Part shown: piece by piece, positions 46,089-63,867 of the stretch
Layout of the letters: each line of letters starts with the position of its first letter
Position numbering within the stretch: the stretch's first letter is position 1
DNA from: a bacterium
GTDB lineage: Bacteria > Electryoneota > Electryoneia > Electryoneales > Electryoneaceae
Direction of reading: 5' to 3'
Assembly (NCBI GenBank): GCA_963675295.2
Contig: CAXXKJ010000002.1
Location: 3,552,001-3,616,000 of the forward strand
Length of the DNA stretch: 64,000 nt
The notes under the pieces: model-generated
Told to the model about the DNA's origin: nothing
The model's database searches: none
What the model saw: only the letters and a program-made list of their open reading frames with translations
Made by a program: the position numbers and the translations under genes

Positions 46089-46170
46089 GCGCGAGTGGTG
46101 GAATTGGCAGACACGCAGGTTTTAGGCACCTGTGCCGAAAGGTGTGGGGGTTCGAGTCCCCCCTCGCGCA
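46089..46170 (+). tRNA. tRNA-Leu (anticodon TAG)
   Basis: GCGCGAG/CTCGCGC acceptor stem, CAGGT-TTTAGGC-ACCTG anticodon arm, long variable arm and GGTTCGAGTCC T arm; followed by CCG rather than CCA. Confidence 0.95.
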
Positions 46171-46289
46171 CCGTGTTAATAATCACGGAATTACAACGAC
46201 AGCTACACTACATCCAGCTAGGAATAAACCATGTTCAGGTAACACCCGGGTAACACTGTTAACCTTCAGATCTTGGACTTAAGCAAAAA

Positions 46290-47487: not shown

Positions 47488-50418
47488 CTATTCGTCAGAC
47501 TTTTTCACCCGGTATTTTCCCTGGGCAACCCGTTCAGTGATCGTCTTCAAATCCCGCTCTACAGTTTTCACAGCCACAGCAATGCCCGCTTCTTTAAGAG
47601 CTGCGCGTACCCCCTTGATAGTCACAACTTCACCACCAAATGTACGCTGAATGAACTCATGTCTGAGGTCGTGAAGTGATTTGGGTTTCTCGACAACAGG
47701 AATCTCACCACGAATTTGCAGCACGGTTCGCAGTTTCGTTTTGATGAAAGGTATTGCCCCGTCAACGTCTTCCTCTGTTGCGACTGTGCCAAGTGAAGCT
47801 GATGTAATGGCTCGCACATACTTGTGCGCCGATATGGCTGCACGAGTGGAAAAATCGGTAATTGCCTTCTCGTCAGGGAATTCATCCTGCATCTCTTTCC
47901 AGACAGCATCCATCCTCCCGACCAAACACTCGCGCACATTTTCAGGGAGTGGTTCGACTTTGCGGAAATATGTCCTGACGTAAGCGACGATGCGCTTCAG
48001 CGTACGTTTCCATTCACCTGCTGTGGCCGAATCTGAGGTGACGTCAGCTTTACCCCACTCACGCAATATTTCTTCGGCCACCTTTAGCTGAGATTGCCCA
48101 CCCCGTTCAAGCTCAACGATAAAATCGAACCTGGAGAGAACGTTTACGGGTACATCAATATCCTGTTTTCCTTGCGGCAGTGGTCGAACCTGGGATAAGC
48201 GATTCATATCAACGTGGATTGCCGTCAGGGCTTTGAATATCACCCGGGATGTGGTTGAGTCGATTACCTCTCCATCTTCCATCAGTTTGGAGAACATGGC
48301 GAAAATCGGCTGTCTGTCATGCCTGATCTCGTGGAAATCCTGAATGCAGAGCACACCGTGGGACGCCCTCGGTACATAGCCTGGGCGAATTTCATGACCC
48401 CGCGAGGATGTACTCTTATTCCCTATCAGCCCTGCAACCGTCAACTTCCTGTCAACCGATGCGACTTCCTCACCAACCGGGTTCAGAATTAATGCGGCCG
48501 TTGTCAGCAGCTTTTTACCCGCACCGGGGGGACCAATTACCAGCGAATTGAGTTTCATCGAACTGTTCTTCTCGTACCCATCGGAAAAGCTCTGATAGAT
48601 AATGAAGTCGAGGGCTTGGTCCAGACCTTCGAGTTTGTCTAATCCCTGAATATGAAGATTTTCAACAAGTTGGCTCTTAATGTAGTTGACGATGCCTTTC
48701 GGCTTCCTTGCATGTTCCCTGAAGATTGCAGCGATAGTCTCATCAGGATCAGGTTTGACCTGAATCAAGTCTTCCGCTGTTGGTTGATCCTTGACCCCCG
48801 TGATATAAAAAGCGAAGAACGGATCTGGAACCCTTCCCCTTCTATCGGCCGGAACTGGGACAACGGGGAATACAGCTCCTTCCAAAACAACCATTTGAAC
48901 AGGGAAGTCGGTATTCATGAATTTTCCGAGAACAGCCTCGTACCGGTCGCTCGACATCGGGATAGCCGGAATCCTGTCTCCACGCTGATCTCGGAGCATC
49001 ACCTCCCTGTACCCCAACTCCATACCCTGAAATGTCTGAAGCTTTGGTGATGATACCTGATGGATCCACGCTAGCAATCGGGCAGGCTTCTTACGGTACT
49101 GTGGGCTTATCAGCTCCCCAATCGACTGTGCAAATGTGTCTTTCCAGGTTGGATTGCTTGCAATAAACGCTTCGATATCCTCACCAATCTTGTGGGATGA
49201 CAGAGCTTCCGTTATTATCGGTTTTTCGTGGGCTAAATCATATTGATCCTGTACTTGCGTCGTGTCGGTCTGCCTGTTTGTCGGTTTGACGTCTGTCACT
49301 TTGATTTCTCCCGCTTCACGAATTATCTGTTCAGCAAAATCTTCCATCTCCATGCTCAAGTAGTATTCCACCTCAGGGAAACCGGCCTGCATTCTGGGGA
49401 GGACGTGGTGGTACATCTCGCGTCGCTCTTCTTCAGACGGTGCCCTTTTCTTTGACCGTAGGTCTGAATAATCAAAGTGCCACAATCCTGAATCTGGGAA
49501 CATCTTCCGACATAGTTTCAGATTCTTCGTGCCCCATCGAAGTACGCCAACAGCATAGTGATGCACCAACTTGGGATTCAGTGTGTCTGCCAGTCGATCA
49601 ATCAACTCGGTGTACGCATCCTGCCATCCTGCAAATGGAATTACAGGATCAAGTTTCAGCGAGACCGGATATCCCCATTCCTGGCATTGGCGAACTGCTA
49701 CTATTCGATCTTCGAAGGGAACCGCGTTTTCACCTTCAGAATTGTCAATCACCAGCTGTGGCGACAGCGTAAAACCAACAATCGTCCTACCCTGATGATC
49801 GAGACCCTTCAGGTTCTGAACATTGGCGCTTTTCGTGCGAAGTTCGATCTGGCTGTTTGGAAGCGTCGTGACAAACGGGATGAAGTCCGTCGTCATTCTG
49901 GTCAGGTGGTCCAGTGCCAGGCTGTCAGTGTGTTCGCCCAGGTTGAACGTGGATAGCTGGTCACCTGTTTCTTCTGCAAATTGCGTCATCTTGCGTTGAA
50001 TTTGGTGCACATCAGCATTCACGGCAACGGGATAGCTGCTCACGTTTGCGCCGTCTAAGTAGCAGTAGTGACACTTGAACATGCACATGCCACCAATTAT
50101 TGCTTCGAAGACCCGTCCGGAATTCTGCTTGTAGACGTCCATTGATATGCGCCGACCGTGACGGGGTTCTTCTTTTACACGCCCATCACTAGATGCCCTC
50201 AAGTAGAGCACTTTGCGACCGCGTAGAATGTTAATTGGGGCATAGTCGTAATAATCACCAGCTTCCGGGAATTCAATTTGCTTCATTTGAGTGGCATTTT
50301 CTACATATTCGACGGGGATTCCCTTCATTTCAGGTGAACCAAGGACTCGTTGCGTCACTTCTTCATCCCGGACTTTGTTTAGGACATAGATGCGTTCGGG
50401 ACGAAAGTCAGAAATCAT
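47488..50418 (-). CDS. Fusion of an SPL(SplB)-like radical SAM domain with an MCM-family OB/AAA+ helicase module
   Basis: SPL-like: CMFKCHYCYL, GEHTDSLALDHLT, ELRTKS, GYPVSLKLDPVI..GW. MCM-like: LNSLVIGPPGAGK, LTVAGL, GVLCIQDF, VLSRFDFI, STRA, EEDVDGAI. ATG at 50418 follows a GGGGG RBS. Confidence 0.85.
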   Translation of the reverse strand: MISDFRPERIYVLNKVRDEEVTQRVLGSPEMKGIPVEYVENATQMKQIEFPEAGDYYDYAPINILRGRKVLYLRASSDGRVKEEPRHGRRISMDVYKQNSGRVFEAIIGGMCMFKCHYCYLDGANVSSYPVAVNADVHQIQRKMTQFAEETGDQLSTFNLGEHTDSLALDHLTRMTTDFIPFVTTLPNSQIELRTKSANVQNLKGLDHQGRTIVGFTLSPQLVIDNSEGENAVPFEDRIVAVRQCQEWGYPVSLKLDPVIPFAGWQDAYTELIDRLADTLNPKLVHHYAVGVLRWGTKNLKLCRKMFPDSGLWHFDYSDLRSKKRAPSEEERREMYHHVLPRMQAGFPEVEYYLSMEMEDFAEQIIREAGEIKVTDVKPTNRQTDTTQVQDQYDLAHEKPIITEALSSHKIGEDIEAFIASNPTWKDTFAQSIGELISPQYRKKPARLLAWIHQVSSPKLQTFQGMELGYREVMLRDQRGDRIPAIPMSSDRYEAVLGKFMNTDFPVQMVVLEGAVFPVVPVPADRRGRVPDPFFAFYITGVKDQPTAEDLIQVKPDPDETIAAIFREHARKPKGIVNYIKSQLVENLHIQGLDKLEGLDQALDFIIYQSFSDGYEKNSSMKLNSLVIGPPGAGKKLLTTAALILNPVGEEVASVDRKLTVAGLIGNKSTSSRGHEIRPGYVPRASHGVLCIQDFHEIRHDRQPIFAMFSKLMEDGEVIDSTTSRVIFKALTAIHVDMNRLSQVRPLPQGKQDIDVPVNVLSRFDFIVELERGGQSQLKVAEEILREWGKADVTSDSATAGEWKRTLKRIVAYVRTYFRKVEPLPENVRECLVGRMDAVWKEMQDEFPDEKAITDFSTRAAISAHKYVRAITSASLGTVATEEDVDGAIPFIKTKLRTVLQIRGEIPVVEKPKSLHDLRHEFIQRTFGGEVVTIKGVRAALKEAGIAVAVKTVERDLKTITERVAQGKYRVKKSDE

Positions 50419-50534
50419 AGCCACGTCAATACCCCCAGTGACACCAGCTTTTTGCCGATGAATTCCTAAGCTCGGAAACACGTAAATAATCCGGCATAAG
50501 AACATGTACCCAGACAAAGCAAACAGGAGGACGT

Positions 50535-51293
50535 ATGACCGATTCGAAGGCGGCGATAACGCCGTTTGCACCAGTCGAACTACAACCACTTCGCAGGGCG
50601 AACGGGGATCACAGCAGCCGTTTGGCTGTGGTGTTGAATCCCCACGCTGATGCCACGGAAGTGGGAGTAGTATCCCCCGAATACAAGCTCGTGAAAAACA
50701 GTGACGTTGTGCAAGTCGCGGAAGACCTGCTTGGCAGGACGAGGATGCCCATCGAAGAACATCAGACGTTATGGAACGGGAAGAAGTTCCGGCAGCGATA
50801 TCTGCTGACCCAGACCACGGGTGAAGTAAAGGTCGGTGATGTTGTGGCATGCACGTTGGATGCTGTCAACAGCTACGATGGAAGTACCACCTTCGGCTTG
50901 GAATTCAACGCAGTCCGTCTGGTATGCAGCAACGGCATGATGTTGTCGTTCATGCTTGGTGGATTCCGCTTCAAACACTGGGGTAGCCAGAATTTCGACC
51001 GGGAAATGCGCGTTGCGGCGCGTCAGTTGGATCGTGTTGGCAATCGTCTGCATGTGGTTCTTCCGATGCTGGTCGATCTGACACACAAGCGGATGCGACG
51101 TGCGGACATCCAGAAGTTCTTCCGTGAAACCAACCTGCCGATCACTACCCAGGCGAAGGTATTCAACGGCATCGAAGACGACACAGCCTGGGGAGTGTAC
51201 AACGCAGCAACGGATGTGCTGACCAAGCAGGAACGCTTCAGCGCTGAAAACCTGAACCGTCGTGTGTCGCAGTATTTCCTGTCACCCAACTGA
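50535..51293 (+). CDS. DUF932/DUF945-family phage/plasmid protein
   Basis: VVS..Y.LV.N, NSYDGST, RLVCSNGM, F.HWG and TAWGVYNAAT; AGGAGG RBS. Confidence 0.85.
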   Translation: MTDSKAAITPFAPVELQPLRRANGDHSSRLAVVLNPHADATEVGVVSPEYKLVKNSDVVQVAEDLLGRTRMPIEEHQTLWNGKKFRQRYLLTQTTGEVKVGDVVACTLDAVNSYDGSTTFGLEFNAVRLVCSNGMMLSFMLGGFRFKHWGSQNFDREMRVAARQLDRVGNRLHVVLPMLVDLTHKRMRRADIQKFFRETNLPITTQAKVFNGIEDDTAWGVYNAATDVLTKQERFSAENLNRRVSQYFLSPN

Positions 51294-53134: not shown

Positions 53135-54973
53135 TCAGCGGACTAGCATCACCTTCTGGGTGGCGTTCAATTCGCCCGGCACGGTTGCGCGGACGAAGTA
53201 CAGACCGCTCGCCACGTGAGATCCGTCAAACGTAAACGTATGCTCTCCGGCGGAATATTGACCGTTCGCCAGCTCTGCAACCTTCTGCCCAGTTACGTTG
53301 TACACGTTCACCTTAATGTTCGCAACCTCAGGTAACGTGACAGAAACACTCGTTGCTGCGTTAAACGGGTTAGGATGCGTTGATAGTGAGAAACCACCCG
53401 GCCTCGCTGGATCACTGAACGAATCCAGTGAGGGCTCCGGTCCGGATGCTCTACTGAATTCAGGTGCCGATGAGGTCTCAAACCAGTCACAGGATGGTAT
53501 GGAATAGGCAAAATCAGCCGCATCTGCGCCCTGTCCCTGCTTTTCAAACTGGAACGAGTCGCCGATGATGTCAAGTTGGTCCGGATCGCCGAAGTGGACG
53601 GTGAAGGTGTATGTGCCCGGCGGTGCGGCGGGTGGGATGTACTGCTGGATCGTGTCGGCTTCGTAGACCTGGTCCGGCTGGAAGACACGCCGCATCGACC
53701 AGACGGTGGACTCGTTGCCGCCGGGGAAGGTGACCGTTGACCACACACGCAGATAGCGTGGATTCGCCATGTTGTTCAGCAGCGCGCCGTGGTAGGTGAT
53801 GAAGCCGCCGTTCGCGGGGACGTCGGTCTGCAACGCGTCCAGCCCGATCTCGATACGGCGGCTGATGAACGGGTTAACGAACCAGCGCACTTCCTGGTTC
53901 AGGATGTCCATGTCGCCGTCACCGTCGATGTCAGCAGCTTTCAACTGAGTGTACAGGTTGTCATTGTTTTCAGCATAATTCCGGATGATGAAATGCAAGT
54001 TATCGCCCACATTGAACAACAGTTGGTTACCAACAGCAAGGTCCATGTGTCCATCGTTGTTCAGATCTAGCGGGACAAAAGCTGGAATATTGCCATAGTA
54101 ATCGTCCCAGAGTTCATGAATTGTCACAGTGGAACCATCCTCATTCTCAAACCAGAGCAAGCGAATGCCGTCCTGATCAGTACCAAAGAAGAAGTTAAGA
54201 CAGACGAGAAAATCCACATCACCATCATAATCAAAATCCACTGCAATTGGTGGACGAAAAGATCGATTCCGGCCATCATCGATCAGGGGAACTTCCGTAA
54301 ATGTCTGATCAGGGTTAGCTAGGAACATCAGAAGTCTGTTGACTTGAACCGCCGCAAAATCCAACAATCCGTCCTCATTGAAATCGGTAAGGGTTGATAG
54401 ACGGAATCCACTACTACTCGATGGATGATCCTGTACTGTGAAATTGCCGCTTCCGTCGTTGATCCAAATCGAAAATCCAGGTTCGTTTATCCCGGTGCCG
54501 GCAATAAAATCGTTGTCGCCGTCACCGTCAAGATCACCAGCTGAAACATCACCACCCAGGTAGTTGGCAAATCCCTGGACCTGGGCGGCCAGAATGTGTG
54601 TTACGAATTGTGACTCTCCCTGAAATTCGATCCAACCAACCACATCACCCTCACCGTCCGTACCGGTGAAGAGGAAATCCAGGTCACCGTCCATATCCAG
54701 ATCGACGAAGCGGCCATCGTGACCTGTCGACACATCTGGTGACGGATTGTAGTCCAAAAATTCCCATTCTCCGGGGTATTGGTTGTAGCTAAGCTTCAAC
54801 GAACCTAAGAATACAGCGACATCAAAATCAGAGTCTCTGTCAAGATCACTGATGTCAAAGGGACCATGACCATCACCTTGCCAGCTTGGGAGTATTACTG
54901 TTTCCCATAGTTCTGCCTTAACTTGAACAATTCCAATAAGTAAGGCTAGAGTCACTGTAACTAAGATTTTCAT
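53135..54973 (-). CDS. FG-GAP/VCBS-repeat secreted protein with Ig-like domain and T9SS-type-A-like CTD
   Basis: DLDxDGDxD repeats; HPNPFN...TQKVMLVR; GGAGG RBS. Confidence 0.88.
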   Translation of the reverse strand: MKILVTVTLALLIGIVQVKAELWETVILPSWQGDGHGPFDISDLDRDSDFDVAVFLGSLKLSYNQYPGEWEFLDYNPSPDVSTGHDGRFVDLDMDGDLDFLFTGTDGEGDVVGWIEFQGESQFVTHILAAQVQGFANYLGGDVSAGDLDGDGDNDFIAGTGINEPGFSIWINDGSGNFTVQDHPSSSSGFRLSTLTDFNEDGLLDFAAVQVNRLLMFLANPDQTFTEVPLIDDGRNRSFRPPIAVDFDYDGDVDFLVCLNFFFGTDQDGIRLLWFENEDGSTVTIHELWDDYYGNIPAFVPLDLNNDGHMDLAVGNQLLFNVGDNLHFIIRNYAENNDNLYTQLKAADIDGDGDMDILNQEVRWFVNPFISRRIEIGLDALQTDVPANGGFITYHGALLNNMANPRYLRVWSTVTFPGGNESTVWSMRRVFQPDQVYEADTIQQYIPPAAPPGTYTFTVHFGDPDQLDIIGDSFQFEKQGQGADAADFAYSIPSCDWFETSSAPEFSRASGPEPSLDSFSDPARPGGFSLSTHPNPFNAATSVSVTLPEVANIKVNVYNVTGQKVAELANGQYSAGEHTFTFDGSHVASGLYFVRATVPGELNATQKVMLVR

Positions 54974-55588: not shown

Positions 55589-56629
55589 TCAAAGCCTTTG
55601 GGACAGAAGCTTAGTTATGGTTCCGGTCTTTTCAGTGTAGTGGTTTTCTCGTGTTGATCTCAAGTTTTGTCGTCTTCTTTCCTGCAGTGTTTTCCGTTTG
55701 ATCTCCTCGCGTTTGGTTTGAATTTCGTGGTAGCGGCCGCTGTACATGTCGGCCGGTGTGATGTTGTCCAGCGATTCGTGGACACGTTCGTGGTTGTACC
55801 AAGTGACGAAGGCATCGATCTGATGTCGTAAGTCGTCCGGGAACCAGTAGTTCTGCAGCTTGATAAGGTTCTTCATCGTGCGGTGGTAGCGTTCGATCTT
55901 ACCCTGTGTCATCGGGTGATACGGCTTGCCGCGCGTATGGTCCATCTTCTGATCTGACAGGTACTTCGCCAGTTCTTTCGACACATAGCACGGCCCGTTG
56001 TCCGACAGCAGCCGGGGACGGTGACGCACGGTCACCTGGTCGATTCCGGCATGTTCAAGTGCCAGATCGAGGGTTTCCTTCACGTCATCCGCTGACATGG
56101 TCGTAAACAGCTTCCACGACAGGATGTAGCGGCTGTAATCGTCCATCACCGTCGACAGGTAATACCACCCCCAGCCGACCACCCGGAAGTACGTGAAATC
56201 CGTCTGCCACAGCTCGTTGATCCGGCGGGTCGGATTCTTGAATTTATCCGCCGCCTTCAGCACGATGTAATTCGGGCTGGCAATCAAATCATACGACTTA
56301 AGTATCCGGTATACACTGGATTCCGAGATGTACCAGCCGTGCTCGTCGGTAATGTGCCAGGCCAGTTCACGGGGTGTCTTGTCCGGATGGTCCAGCGCCA
56401 GGTCACGCACCCGTTTCTTCTCCTGATCCGGGATCTTGTTCCAGAACTGGCGCACGACGGGCTTCCGATCGACCAGACCGTCAAAGCCATCATCCACGTA
56501 CTGGCTATACCAGCGATAGAACGTGCTGCGCGGGATGTCCAACTGCTCCAGCGTGCGTTTCACACCCAGATCGGACTGCTCCACCAGACGGATGATTTCC
56601 AGCTTCTCTGAAGCGCTGTGTCGCATCAT
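55589..56629 (-). CDS. IS3-family transposase OrfB (DDE integrase core)
   Basis: WQTDFTY, DDYSR, SDNGPCY, GKIERYHRT.K and YNHERVHESL. Confidence 0.93.
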   Translation of the reverse strand: MMRHSASEKLEIIRLVEQSDLGVKRTLEQLDIPRSTFYRWYSQYVDDGFDGLVDRKPVVRQFWNKIPDQEKKRVRDLALDHPDKTPRELAWHITDEHGWYISESSVYRILKSYDLIASPNYIVLKAADKFKNPTRRINELWQTDFTYFRVVGWGWYYLSTVMDDYSRYILSWKLFTTMSADDVKETLDLALEHAGIDQVTVRHRPRLLSDNGPCYVSKELAKYLSDQKMDHTRGKPYHPMTQGKIERYHRTMKNLIKLQNYWFPDDLRHQIDAFVTWYNHERVHESLDNITPADMYSGRYHEIQTKREEIKRKTLQERRRQNLRSTRENHYTEKTGTITKLLSQRL

Positions 56630-56997
56630 TCGTCCGGGTCGATACCCTGATCGATGCAGCTTTTTTTTAGGTACTGATTCTGCAGATACAGATCCGAAAC
56701 ACCACGCCGAAGCTCTTCGTTTTCACGTTTCAGCTGCTTCACTTCGTCGCTGCTGGCTTCACGTTTCGTGTCGCCCTGCAGACGCTTCTTCCCGGCTTCC
56801 AGAAATTCCTTCGACCAGCTATAATACTGATTTGCGTGAATCTCTTCGATCCGGCACAGCTCGGCGATGCTCATCTCGCCACGCAGACCTTCCAGCACGA
56901 TGCGGATCTTCTCTTCGGACGAAAACTTCCGGCGGGTACGACGCTTCACTTCGCGTACGGCTTCTTCGGATGGCGACTTCTTTGGCCTTGGGCTCAT
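56626..56997 (-). CDS. IS3-family transposase OrfA (HTH)
   Basis: RRKFSSEEKIRIVLEGLRGE.SIAELCR. CTA AAA AAA AGC at 56660-56670 places the -1 frame in register with orfB. Confidence 0.93.
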   Translation of the reverse strand: MSPRPKKSPSEEAVREVKRRTRRKFSSEEKIRIVLEGLRGEMSIAELCRIEEIHANQYYSWSKEFLEAGKKRLQGDTKREASSDEVKQLKRENEELRRGVSDLYLQNQYLKKSCIDQGIDPDE

Positions 56998-57083
56998 GAC
57001 TGACCTCCTCATTCGTCAATCTAAGACCAAAACCATAACTAACTACAGACCTACAAATGTCCCACTTCCTCTGACGTCAGACA

Positions 57084-57461
57084 GTGATGGAGTACCCATG
57101 ATTGACCGCTCCCATCAACATTTTCCCACCAGGATATTTCAAATGCAAAATCAGCTGCGCCTACCACGTCCGTGTCGCCATCGCCATCCATATCGATTGC
57201 GTATATGCTGAACGCTGAGCCAAAGTCGGCATCAATAATGTGTTCCGTGAAGTTCTGCGCACCATCATTTTCCCACCATCCGACCGCATTTGCTGTGTTT
57301 GCAGCACCAACTACATCTACATCACCGTCGCCATCGATGTCTGTGGCATACACATCAAATGCGCCATCGAATCCCTGCGCGATGGTGTGATCTTCCCAAG
57401 TGATAATCGCCGAAGCGACCAATGGGAAAAGGATGGTCAGGACAACTGTCAGCGTACGCAT
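57084..57461 (-). pseudogene. FG-GAP/VCBS-repeat gene truncated by IS3
   Basis: Signal peptide and two DIDGDGD.DV.GAA repeats, then it runs into the IS inverted repeat. Confidence 0.85.
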
Positions 57462-57485
57462 GTTTCCCCCATAGTATCTTAAGAT

Positions 57486-59291
57486 CTACTTCAGCAACAT
57501 AGCTTTTTGGACAATGGCAGCCTGGTCTTTTGTCGTCGCACGAATCAGGTACAGCCCGGAAGCTTGACCTTCGGCGTTGAATGTCAGCTGATGCAAACCG
57601 GCTGTGAACTGACCGTCCGCGAGCACAGCGACTTGCTGACCCACGATGTTGAAGACTTCAACCTTCAGGTCTGCGGATCTTGGCAGGATCACCGTGATCG
57701 ATGTGGACGGATTGAACGGATTGGGGTAAGCCCCACTGACACGGAATTCCGTGGGAATCAGCTCCACAGGAATCTCCTCGGCGATCTCCCAGATCACTCG
57801 CCCATCCCAACTGTTATCGATGGATCCCGGATCAGCGCCTTCCTTCATGAATTCGAACGAATCGCTAATGTTTATACCGCCTGGATAACCCACGTACCCG
57901 ACGAATTCATAGCCGCCAGCTGGTGCAAAACCAGGTATGCTCTGGGTAAACCCCGTTCCTGTGTAATCCATGAACGGAAGTAACGTGAAGATGTGTTGGT
58001 GTGGAGGTGAAACGATATCGCCGTCAGGAAGAATTACATTCGTCCAGTAGTAGACTCCCGGATAGGTATTCGGTAACGTGCTTACCAGATGTGCGTCGTA
58101 GACAAGTGTTCCACCTTCAGCGGGGATTGTTGCTGATGATGTCAGCGTAAGGGTGAGTTGAACCGGATACGGTACTTGCTCCCACCATGTGATCGAATTT
58201 TCAAACTGGGCAGCCCCGACAACGTCTGGATCACCATCCTGGTCCAAATCGGTCGCAACTACGCAACGGGCACCGTTGAAATTACCATCGATCGTATGTT
58301 TGACCCAGTTCTGACTATCACCATCTAAATCTTCCCACCAAGTGATGTCGTCTGCGAACGCCGCTGCGCCCAGCACATCAATATCACCATCGCCATCTAT
58401 GTCTTCCGCTGTGACAGACCAGGCCCCGTTGTAATTGCCATCAACTGTGTGTTTTTCCCACAAGCTGCCATCACCGTTGACGTTCTTCCACCAGGCGATT
58501 TCGTCAGCCTGATATGCTGCACCAAGCACATCAAGATACCCGTCCAGATCGACATCCGTTGTATGAATGAAATACGCCCCAGTGAATTCAGCATTGACAA
58601 CGTGTCCAGACCAGGTGATGCCATCACCATCAACGTTTTCCCACCAAGACAATTCACTTGCGAGGGACGCTGACCCAAGTATGTCAAGATCGCCGTCCAA
58701 GTCTACGTCCGCAGCAATGGCGCAATTGGCGCCGTCAAATCCAGTAGCAACGTTGTGTGGAATCCAAGACTGACCATCGCCTTCAACGTTTTCGTACCAT
58801 TTGATCTCATCCCCGACCCAAGCTGCACCGATCACGTCCTGATCCCCATCCCCATCAATATCAGCTGCCCGTGCTGATTCGGCGTTGACCAGATTTGTTT
58901 CGATGGAATGCTTTACCCAGCTCGTGCCCATCCCATCTAGATTTTCCCACCAGGCTATTTCGTTCAAAGCGTCTGCAGATGCGACTATGTCAATGTCACC
59001 GTCACCGTCGATATCGGCTGCATCTGGACTTGTGGCACCTGTGAATGCTGTATCTATTGTACAAGGGGACCACTCCAAGCCTGACCCGTCGAGATTGCTG
59101 TACCAGACCACATCATTACCGTAATAGGCTGTTCCGATTACGTCGAGTGTTCCATCGGAATTCACATCAGCAACGCAGACTTCAAACGCCCCTTCCAATC
59201 CTGCATCGATGATATGATCTTCCCACATCACCTGGCCCATGGAGGCAACGGGGAGCGACAAGAGGATGAGAATGAACATATACGTGCGCAT
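57486..59291 (-). CDS. FG-GAP/VCBS seven-repeat beta-propeller with Ig-like domain and T9SS-type-A-like CTD
   Basis: Seven D.DGDGD.D..GAA...I.WWEN repeats; AYPNPFNP...QKAMLLK. Confidence 0.9.
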   Translation of the reverse strand: MRTYMFILILLSLPVASMGQVMWEDHIIDAGLEGAFEVCVADVNSDGTLDVIGTAYYGNDVVWYSNLDGSGLEWSPCTIDTAFTGATSPDAADIDGDGDIDIVASADALNEIAWWENLDGMGTSWVKHSIETNLVNAESARAADIDGDGDQDVIGAAWVGDEIKWYENVEGDGQSWIPHNVATGFDGANCAIAADVDLDGDLDILGSASLASELSWWENVDGDGITWSGHVVNAEFTGAYFIHTTDVDLDGYLDVLGAAYQADEIAWWKNVNGDGSLWEKHTVDGNYNGAWSVTAEDIDGDGDIDVLGAAAFADDITWWEDLDGDSQNWVKHTIDGNFNGARCVVATDLDQDGDPDVVGAAQFENSITWWEQVPYPVQLTLTLTSSATIPAEGGTLVYDAHLVSTLPNTYPGVYYWTNVILPDGDIVSPPHQHIFTLLPFMDYTGTGFTQSIPGFAPAGGYEFVGYVGYPGGINISDSFEFMKEGADPGSIDNSWDGRVIWEIAEEIPVELIPTEFRVSGAYPNPFNPSTSITVILPRSADLKVEVFNIVGQQVAVLADGQFTAGLHQLTFNAEGQASGLYLIRATTKDQAAIVQKAMLLK

Positions 59292-63785: not shown

Positions 63786-63867
63786 AATGTCGGAATGTCG
63801 GAATGTCGGAATGTCGGAATTTAGCTGTCCTGGGTCGGCGCGGGTTATAGATATCGCCCGACATTCC
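63786..63867. repeat. 8-bp tandem repeat (AATGTCGG) x4 plus an inverted copy
   Basis: Tandem at 63786-63817; CCGACATTCC at 63858-63867. Confidence 0.85.

Follow-up and report, generated by a model that had tools for sequence, protein, structure and literature searches.

A single gene from the bacterial phylum Electryoneota encodes, in one polypeptide, a radical S-adenosylmethionine (SAM) domain related to spore photoproduct lyase (SPL) and a helicase module of the minichromosome maintenance (MCM) type. The gene lies on a mobile island within a stretch of 64,000 nucleotides (nt), hereafter the window, which corresponds to positions 3,552,001 to 3,616,000 of contig CAXXKJ010000002.1 (assembly GCA_963675295.2); the coordinates of its features are collected in Table 1. 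An earlier note, made from the letters of the window alone, had proposed such a fusion. SPL and MCM are joined in 12 other protein clusters (ENA, JGI, NCBI and Logan), and other members of the motor family carry other heads. There is a recurrent genetic link between this motor and DNA repair heads that act by direct reversal.

First, the integrity of the gene was examined. The uninterrupted open reading frame (ORF) of about 976 amino acids (aa) reported in the earlier note is borne out by translation, which passes through 976 codons without a stop or frameshift, as well as by contigs and homologues. The junction is covered by one 4378-nt assembled contig in each of three sequencing runs, with no differences over 48300-50400 and at a depth of 40-106; the three runs all come from one sample, possibly the source of the window itself. 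A fourth run, from a different sample of the same study, gave four identical fragments of 151-584 nt, none of which bridges the whole junction. Among homologues, P0004 comes from another source, is 73% identical and aligns over query residues 144-973, thus across the junction, and P0007 (901 aa, 37% identical) covers 99% of the query. The source genome has a single copy of the gene. With the junction spanned in all three of these runs and the fusion shared by 12 other clusters, this is one genuine gene encoding one polypeptide and not an assembly chimera. One fact could raise the suspicion of a chimera, or of pseudogene read-through across two neighboring genes: a relative of the same genus encodes the MCM part as a separate gene of 607-608 aa without the head. 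Against the open frame, the spanning contigs, the two homologues and eleven further fusions confirmed by Pfam, such an artefact is hardly credible, and to the extent that sequence data permit it appears refuted.

The start codon is placed at 50418 because the alignments of relatives (P0006, P0074, P0078 and P0150) begin at residue 2-4 of the 976-aa form. P0006 aligns over residues 4-375 with 71% identity, and residues 2-92 are conserved among relatives. The same frame is open further upstream to an ATG at 50850, giving 1120 aa; this extension runs into the divergent DUF932 gene and has no homologue. In public annotation the gene (P0003) is called with 884 aa and a start at M93, which is too short at the N-terminus. 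In Pfam, the protein matches SPL (PF20903; E = 2.4e-26, 92.9 bits, cut-off 27) and MCM (PF00493; E = 2.2e-5, 24.1 bits, cut-off 23.3), both of which score far above the level expected by chance. The two parts are predicted to be joined by a flexible linker of about 20 residues, where the predicted local distance difference test (pLDDT) falls to 39-49 for aa 381-400 in the head model and below 50 for residues 1-8 of the tail model. Complex prediction between the head (aa 1-372) and aa 395-905 of the MCM module gave a score of 0.00 twice and was counted neither way.

The C-terminal part, from aa ~391 to 971, is a complete but divergent MCM-type module with an N-terminal beta domain, an AAA+ core and a winged helix. 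Its AlphaFold2 (AF2) model was built from 92 relatives (pLDDT 92.7, predicted TM-score (pTM) 0.88) and shows, in this order, two helices, a beta domain (model residues 67-164), the AAA+ core, a helical lid and the winged helix. In a Foldseek search of the PDB, all matches listed (ranks 1-50) were MCM subunits, the best at E = 1.4e-25. Structural alignment by VIA-align gave Z 30.9 against human MCM5 (model residues 12-521 on chain residues 70-652), Z 30.0 against the archaeal SsoMCM (6mii_B; root-mean-square deviation (rmsd) 5.9, 410 aligned residues) and Z 28.9 against Methanopyrus kandleri MCM (3f8t; rmsd 3.6). VIA-align rows report only the first and last aligned residues. Rows beginning at model residue 11-12 contain 407-431 aligned residues against 301-330 for rows beginning at 173-181, and the N-terminal beta domain is thus part of the match, since about 80-110 more residues are aligned. 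Some MCM alignments also reach the winged helix, up to model residue 593-595; at this position relatives match Pfam Arg_repressor or HTH_DeoR.

Sequence comparison points in the same direction. A profile of 14 family members matched 33 PDB entries at E ≤ 1e-3, every one of which is MCM2-9 or an archaeal MCM, and PF00493 is matched in 38 of the 45 long relatives scanned (25.7-52.4 bits). The P-loop Lys, the sensor-1 Asn (N739) and the arginine finger (R763) are present in 92 of 92 relatives, and the sensor-2 Arg (R859) in 91. Other positions depart from the canonical pattern. The residue following the P-loop Lys is Lys in 77 of the 92 and Ser in 6, and the two Walker B columns hold Gln in 78 or Glu in 13, then Asp in 89 or Glu in 3. 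Pfam MCM_OB and MCM_N were matched neither by the fusion protein at E ≤ 1 nor by the 45 relatives at E ≤ 1e-4, and no cysteine occurs in the first 200 residues of the module, hence no zinc finger or zinc-binding subdomain. The earlier assignment of the tail to MCM therefore holds for the fold, with 33 of 33 profile matches, Z values of about 30 and the beta domain, but not for the Walker motifs (GKK and QD) and the zinc finger. ComM or Mg-chelatase without an oligonucleotide-binding (OB) fold, named in that note as the identity that would overturn MCM, was rejected: PF01078 reached 18.6 bits, below its cut-off of 20.3 and below the MCM score, and 0 of the 33 PDB matches is a chelatase or ComM. 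The module belongs to an unnamed bacterial family whose P-loop reads GKK and whose Walker B reads QD.

Turning to the N-terminal part, the head has the SPL fold over the whole domain. With an AF2 model built on 28 relatives (pLDDT 91.6, pTM 0.90), the six best Foldseek matches in the PDB were all SPL structures (E = 1.5e-20 to 2.5e-21, target TM 0.81-0.84). For 4k9r and 4fhc, E was 2.5e-21 with a TM of 0.83 on the target over 360-367 alignment columns, and the next radical SAM enzyme in the list appeared at E = 1.2e-6. A phmmer comparison with the Geobacillus SPL chains gave E ~1e-16. The SPL-like nature of the head is thereby confirmed at the level of fold. CHYCYL is identical between the head and Geobacillus SPL, and Y120, the codon directly after CMFKCHYC (50059-50061), matches Tyr98. 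C112, C116, Y118 and C119 are invariant in the 28 SPL-like relatives. Arithmetic on the frame also shows that the positions first given for CMFKCHYC, GPPGAGKK and SRFD were all correct.

However, the motif-by-motif agreement with SplB that had been claimed does not hold for the head. In the available text of Benjdia et al. (2012; PMC3467042), the final hydrogen (H) atom given to the thymine allylic radical comes from Cys140 in Geobacillus, which is Cys141 in Bacillus subtilis; the clostridial enzyme has Ala there, and a Cys at the Ser76 position (Cys77 in Clostridium) substitutes. Position 140 of the C140S and C140A crystal chains aligns without gaps to Glu162 of the head (phmmer). G161 and E162 are each at least 90% conserved among the 28 relatives, and G-E is also retained in SPL-type fusions covering that stretch (GEHTD, SEFxD). 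No Cys is found in residues 60-111 of the translated head, hence none at the Clostridium-type donor position. The NCBIfam SplB models TIGR04070 (95.1 bits, cut-off 400) and TIGR03886 (73.7 bits, cut-off 437.55) both score below threshold. By these measures, with 95 bits where 400 are required, Glu162 for Cys140 and no alternative Cys, the head is not an SplB orthologue. Glu162 as a new catalytic residue was considered and set aside as unproven. It lies about 50 residues past the cluster in a G-E context, which matches the common 'GGE' SAM-binding motif of radical SAM enzymes. It may therefore be the ancestral state, later replaced by Cys in Bacillus SplB.

Sixteen aligned fusions cover the iron-sulfur motif (P0004 and P0114 do not include that stretch), and 15 of them keep it intact. 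The exception is P0007, a metagenome protein cluster of 4 members whose SPL domain has no CxxxCxxC loop. Its radical SAM head is, to judge from the sequence, catalytically dead, and catalysis seems not to be universally required since this loop was lost.

The family is large, and its heads are exchangeable. A search of a 50%-identity representative library yielded 1795 proteins at E ≤ 1e-3, of which the best 150 are listed; 136 representatives reached E ≤ 1e-30, matches to SPL only being counted in. Most relatives are headless proteins of 550-680 aa. Eleven of the 45 long relatives combine SPL and MCM by Pfam (P0075, P0077, P0083, P0084, P0089, P0056, P0114, P0007, P0033, P0043 and P0055), and P0004 does so by precomputed annotation. 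A 1140-aa SPL-MCM gene also occurs in an Ignavibacteriaceae metagenome-assembled genome (MAG; locus L003); it is at least 70% identical to a row kept by the redundancy filter and was assigned to the P0043 cluster without a direct check. Thus, the fusion is neither confined to this genome nor a product of assembly, two outcomes that the earlier note held would speak against it. Among the same 45 proteins, NADAR occurs in 5 (four N-terminal, one C-terminal), DnaJ in 6, and a generic Radical_SAM domain with MCM in 3; in 2 more, one of them C-terminal, Pfam finds Radical_SAM alone.

SPL and motor are connected in other ways as well. Locus L029 (3416-7264) encodes SPL (452 aa), MCM (621 aa) and NADAR (172 aa) one after the other, each in its own gene, as a split version of the fusions. 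P0006 and P0008 carry an SPL head, 71% and 65% identical to that of the window, fused to a homologue of the protein that normally follows the motor gene, an HTH_17 partner of ~230 aa whose first ~175 residues have no Pfam match. Their C-terminal halves are 47% and 44% identical to the partner in the same-genus locus L001 (11809-12519), at E = 2e-60 and 3e-55. The SPL head thus exists as a free protein, as a fusion with the motor or with the partner, and as a neighbor gene of the motor, four states in all. As for the free state, a homologue of staphylococcal nuclease (SNase) directly follows a chromosomal stand-alone SPL-like gene in 3 of 5 Desulfobacterales loci (L005, 11182-11865; L006, 10830-11552; L007, 10828-11502), and the SPL-like gene of L005 is extended at the N-terminus.

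In a FastTree phylogeny of 123 MCM modules the heads are interspersed. When only well-supported branches are counted, the SPL label changes at least 7 times, a count inflated by headless rows that are N-terminally truncated fragments and obtained by a quick, approximate method. Four placements are robust: the window clade contains two SPL fusions and the verified headless P0005; P0007 stands next to the headless P0017; there is a main SPL clade with a long insert; and P0033 and P0077 fall among NADAR- and Radical_SAM-headed proteins. A functional link of head and motor is suggested because of the 12 other fusion clusters, the neighboring genes of L029, the partner fusions P0006 and P0008 and the interspersed heads. 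The DnaJ-headed proteins of the same tree are joined by P0046 (681 aa), whose database title reads 'minichromosome maintenance protein MCM [Candidatus Woesearchaeota archaeon]'; either an archaeon of DPANN, a superphylum of small-celled archaea, carries such a mobile element, or the sequence was wrongly binned.

The place of the MCM gene on its elements was compared in 20 loci: L001, L003 and 18 metagenome or MAG loci on short metagenome contigs. Near-copies of L016 and L024 (L013-L015, L025) and short loci (L009, L010, L012, L026, L033, L034) were omitted. An HTH_17 protein is encoded 1-2 genes downstream of the MCM gene in 11 of the 20, and a tyrosine or serine recombinase lies within three genes in 8. 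One or both follow the MCM gene in 17; the other three contigs stop within ~500 bp of the MCM gene, or of a NADAR gene after it. The MCM gene therefore has the position of a backbone (core) gene of integrative elements and not of cargo, since it keeps its place beside Xis-like and recombinase genes in relatives only 30-40% identical. In L001, probably the G001 genome, the DUF932/nuclease/249-aa block shares 85.5% nucleotide identity with the window, whereas the MCM gene shares only 71% (66% for the protein), is headless and precedes the HTH_17 partner. The module has therefore been exchanged within one element backbone. No homologue of this partner was found in the window (tblastn, E ≤ 1e-2). 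In L028 (2844-11034) and L032 (2092-8579), both integrase-bearing, a gene for a sigma-54-activator-type AAA+ protein stands 2-3 genes upstream of MCM.

Some of these elements carry defence cargo. In L024/L025 (3-7361), a DnaJ-MCM gene and a tyrosine integrase are immediately preceded by BREX genes (PglX-type methylase, PglZ and BrxL), and L003 and L027 have restriction-modification genes in their place. The earlier note had considered a defence function for the fusion itself, in which the protein would move along incoming foreign DNA and use radical chemistry to damage or mark it, to the benefit of the host. Mobile islands frequently carry defence genes, and here such genes adjoin the MCM gene. 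The distribution is also patchy: in 78 other species-level genomes of the phylum the MCM part is matched in 7, the SPL part only in 4 and the fusion in none, and the nearest fusions are in metagenomes and in MAGs of Ignavibacteriaceae and Bacteroidota. Yet the proposal is not supported. In PADLOC-DB 2.0 (2023), 0 families match the fusion protein at E ≤ 0.01, and the fixed position beside Xis-like and recombinase genes is the behavior of a backbone gene. In L024/L025 and L003 it is the defence genes that vary, while the MCM gene is constant. Moreover, the SPL and NADAR enzymes described in the available texts remove lesions and do not make them (PMC3467042, PMC11833690). Host defence is improbable, and the least supported of the live options.

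As claimed at the outset, the gene resides on a bacterial mobile island, with att repeats, an integrase and a tRNA-Leu gene. The island extends over ~18.1 kb with both att sites intact, as the 55-bp repeat recurs perfectly at both ends. attR lies ~205 nt past the end of the window and was found by a search of the whole genome; a direct-repeat search confined to the window could not include it. Past the tRNA, the G+C content falls from ~0.60 to 0.44-0.53. The integrase gene follows the fusion gene on its strand after a gap of 46 bp, and the two are probably co-transcribed. The DUF932, nuclease and 249-aa genes are on the opposite strand. They are followed by FG-GAP cargo with type IX secretion system (T9SS) sorting tails, then a 267-aa protein and the P4/D5-type primase-helicase. 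For DUF932, homology to L001 begins 45 nt (50490-50534) before the first ATG, GTG or TTG of the frame in the window, and the gene may have a non-standard start codon or have lost its N-terminus. An IS3-family element with two ORFs (HTH_Tnp_1 and rve; 55589-57012) lies amid the FG-GAP/T9SS-tail genes (53135-54973 and 57051-59291), and the FG-GAP ORF at 57051-57461 (136 aa) looks like a fragment of a gene split by it. Upstream of the primase-helicase gene and ~400 nt inside attR, an 8-bp unit, AATGTCGG, is present in 3.5 tandem copies (63786-63825). The island may thus have an iteron or an origin-like site here.

Table 1. Position, strand and supporting evidence of the features of the fusion gene and of its island (window coordinates unless stated otherwise).
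Feature	Position	Strand	Evidence
SPL-like radical SAM/MCM fusion gene, 976 aa + stop	47488..50418	-	ORF, translation, Pfam, phmmer
Head, predicted SPL-fold radical SAM domain, aa 1-372	49303..50418	-	AF2 model, Foldseek, phmmer
CxxxCxxC [4Fe-4S]/SAM motif CMFKCHYC (C112, C116, C119; Y118 within)	50062..50085	-	translation
G161-E162; Glu162 at place of H-donor Cys140 of Geobacillus SPL	49933..49938	-	ungapped phmmer alignment
Predicted linker, aa 373-390	49249..49302	-	low confidence in both models
Predicted MCM N-terminal domain, two helices + beta (OB-like) domain, aa 391-550	48769..49248	-	model, VIA-align
AAA+ ATPase core + lid, aa 552-905	47704..48765	-	Pfam MCM, PDB profile, VIA-align Z 27-31
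Walker A GPPGAGKK, aa 629-636	48511..48534	-	translation
Walker B region IQDFH; Q693-D694 align to MCM7 D-E	48331..48345	-	HMMER alignment
SRFD arginine finger, aa 762-765, R763	48124..48135	-	aligned to LSRFD of MCM7
Predicted C-terminal winged helix, aa 915-971	47506..47676	-	model H-E-H-H-E-E at residues 536-592
tRNA-Leu (anticodon TAG), integration target	46089..46172	+	ARAGORN
attL, perfect 55-bp direct repeat in tRNA 3' half	46117..46171	.	pattern search of own genome
attR twin	64205-64259 (G000:C2:3616205-3616259)		alignment, 55 identical columns
Tyrosine integrase, 383 aa	46290..47441	-	Pfam Phage_integrase E 3.5e-24, Phage_int_SAM_5 E 3.4e-8
Divergent intergenic region, 116 bp, fusion gene/DUF932 gene	50419..50534	.	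ORF coordinates
DUF932 protein, 94% aa identical to L001 counterpart	50535..51293	+	Pfam E 2.2e-21, tblastn
PD-(D/E)XK (Cas4/phage-exonuclease-like) nuclease, 87% aa identical to L001	51413..52219	+	PDDEXK_1 E 3.2e-17; PHROG 'exonuclease' families
Conserved protein, ~249 aa, 94% aa identical to L001	52216..52965	+	tblastn; phrog_23155 E 4e-7
D5_N/P4-type primase-helicase, 849 aa	60610..63159	-	D5_N E 1.9e-33, DUF5906; TIGR01613 E 6.8e-80

What could such a protein do for its element? The explanation we prefer, tentatively and at a little below an even chance, is that the DNA motor of the island tethers an enzyme reversing lesions or modifications, so that a replication or maintenance motor is equipped with a road-clearing accessory. 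The idea of the earlier note, a motor that would carry a radical SAM head along DNA, is a plausible hypothesis. The MCM module would assemble as a ring and translocate on the DNA of the element, most likely as a replication or maintenance helicase or initiator following excision. Its site recognition would come from the winged helix and, in relatives, also from the HTH_17 partner. The flexibly tethered head, via a 5'-deoxyadenosyl radical, would then reverse a base lesion or adduct that is met by the motor and blocks replication, that is, one that would stop the motor or a polymerase behind it. The substrate may be a thymine adduct like the spore photoproduct or a related modification, and the chemistry would be SPL-like, although the canonical cysteine would not make the last H-atom transfer. 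The sister architectures would follow the same logic, a motor with a road-clearing (NADAR) or remodelling (DnaJ) accessory. DnaJ recruits Hsp70, and the J-domain-helicase arrangement of polyomavirus large T antigen is what we take to be a parallel to the DnaJ-headed motors. A motor with a road-clearing accessory seems the most economical explanation because of the NADAR and large T antigen parallels.

Several observations weigh against this explanation. Both Walker motifs are non-canonical (GKK instead of GxxGxGK[ST], QD instead of D-E), which may make ATP hydrolysis unusual or mean that the protein is a switch rather than a translocase. The head is without the H-donor Cys at either known position, so its substrate need not be spore photoproduct, and the full-length fusion P0007 (901 aa) lacks the entire CxxxCxxC loop. 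NADAR is found at either end of the motor or as a separate gene, which speaks against a fixed 'leading-edge' geometry. A P4/D5-type primase-helicase is encoded on the same island, and one with DUF5906 in L028; the MCM protein need not be the replicative helicase because the island has this enzyme too. Finally, tblastn with the MCM module (E ≤ 1e-5) found no match in 50,697 phage or 72,556 plasmid records, and in IMG/VR none of the 65 stretches matched by two peptide patterns encodes a relative. These scans thus gave no direct evidence of an extrachromosomal replicating form. In BFVD, the best structural match of the MCM module is the viral protein I1TI69 (560 aa, E = 2.4e-23).

Some of the same facts would suit a damage-sensing switch. 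In this case the MCM-like AAA+ protein would bind DNA and, at the expense of ATP, regulate or remodel excision and integration together with the Xis-like HTH_17 protein and the integrase, and the SPL-like domain would be mainly a lesion-binding sensor coupling damage to excision. The unusual Walker motifs, the separate primase-helicase and the constant HTH_17 and recombinase neighbors agree with it, as do the fusion of the SPL head to the HTH_17 partner in P0006 and P0008 and the cluster-less head of P0007, which implies a non-catalytic role in at least one lineage. The full MCM architecture and the invariant arginine finger and sensors, however, point to a working ring ATPase. The iron-sulfur motif is kept in 15 of the 16 covering fusions and in 28 of 28 SPL-like relatives, and DnaJ and NADAR heads are ill-suited to a sensor role. 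We consider the switch quite unlikely.

A further possibility is that the lesion is made by an enzyme and not by ultraviolet (UV) light. Motor and head would then erase DNA modifications laid down by host defence (ADP-ribose, or a radical-labile adduct) so that the element can replicate or establish itself; this counter-defence is a special case of the road-clearing motor. According to the available text of PMC11833690, DarT-type toxins, which are used against phages, ADP-ribosylate guanine in DNA and stall replication, NADAR enzymes reverse this modification, and phage T4 has a NADAR of its own. A NADAR head stands at the same place on the same motor in 5 of 45 relatives, L029 encodes both NADAR and SPL next to the motor, and the head of the fusion is not an SplB orthologue. 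We know of no defence system, however, that makes an SPL-type substrate, and counter-defence is in our judgment unlikely. Sequence alone does not distinguish a lesion caused by UV from one made by a defence system. A wider version, which we regard as doubtful, would join these ideas: in this element family the MCM ring motor may serve as a chassis for exchangeable road-clearing heads, be it a radical SAM lyase, another radical SAM enzyme, NADAR or a J-domain, that erase replication-blocking base adducts during unwinding of the DNA of the element, including those made by defence systems, and the SPL-like head with Glu for the donor Cys may perform an undescribed DNA de-modification. The protein would then be the first helicase-coupled radical SAM machine for repair or counter-defence.

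To our knowledge, radical SAM repair of DNA is represented by a single enzyme, SplB, acting alone in germinating spores, and bacterial MCM helicases are known only as rare genes of mobile elements, fused, if at all, to primases. The present data add a sizeable unnamed bacterial MCM family that is tied to integrases and has repeatedly gained and lost direct-reversal repair heads. An active head would open the way to new radical chemistry on DNA without the canonical donor cysteine, and would offer a physical model of a translocating motor that passes lesions to a repair enzyme; if the lesions are made by defence systems, it would represent a new class of counter-defence. The gene may also serve as a marker of an integrative element family in little-studied T9SS lineages. 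The earlier note knew of no described SPL-MCM fusion, and no description of this or of a radical-SAM-MCM fusion was found in the full-text literature, in which subscription journals are largely uncovered. Co-mentions of 'NADAR' or 'SplB' with 'MCM' were set aside as author names or terms of statistics. The public record P0056 labels its fusion merely 'spore photoproduct lyase family protein'. In the available text of work by Aravind and co-workers (PMC3765255), SplB-like radical SAM enzymes are tied to SOS-type repair operons and not to helicases. Kazlauskas et al. (2018; PMC5862659) state, in the text available, that bacterial MCM-family helicases were previously known from phages only, and add fusions of archaeo-eukaryotic primase and MCM (PrimQH) on integrative plasmids. 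An MCM with an enzymatic head on a mobile element is thus already known from that text; what appears to be new is the non-primase enzymatic head, and a family without a name.

Lastly, the fusion can be set beside the systems it resembles. With SplB of Geobacillus and Bacillus (the 4FHC series) the head shares the fold of the whole domain, CxxxCxxC, the Tyr after the third Cys (Tyr98/Y120), a conserved beta-hairpin with a basic tip (K324 in the fusion) and the DxLT and TK motifs. Unlike SplB, it is only ~18% identical, has Glu162 where Cys140 is expected, belongs to a non-spore-former and is fused to a motor. The motor has the same domain order as archaeal and eukaryotic MCM (6MII, 3F8T, MCM2-7), with the SRFD finger, both sensors and the winged helix. 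It differs from them in its 14-20% identity, its lack of a zinc finger, its helical subdomain A cut to two helices, its GKK and QD Walker motifs and its bacterial, mobile element-encoded origin. Cch of the staphylococcal cassette chromosome mec (SCCmec) is reportedly a ring helicase of MCM-like structure, work that is attributed to Mir-Sanchis et al. in 2016 and is said to give evidence for replication of SCCmec after excision. Like Cch, the fusion has a motor of the MCM-like ring helicase type, encoded beside the recombinases of a non-phage integrative element. Unlike it, the motor is PF00493 with a repair-enzyme head, whereas the 'MCM-like' Cch, next to its recombinase genes, is DUF927 and not PF00493 in the available text of PMC10061031, and has no repair-enzyme head. 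Primase-MCM proteins (the MCM of a Bacillus cereus prophage; PrimQH) are likewise MCMs of mobile elements that bear an enzyme at the N-terminus and end in a winged helix, as far as described in the text available (PMC5862659). The head is a primase there, an enzyme of replication, but radical SAM and lyase-like here, and NADAR or DnaJ in relatives. As for the NADAR antitoxins and phage NADARs, a NADAR domain sits on the same motor family at the head position and directly reverses a base adduct. Its fold and chemistry differ from those of the SPL-like head, and its relevance is by analogy only.

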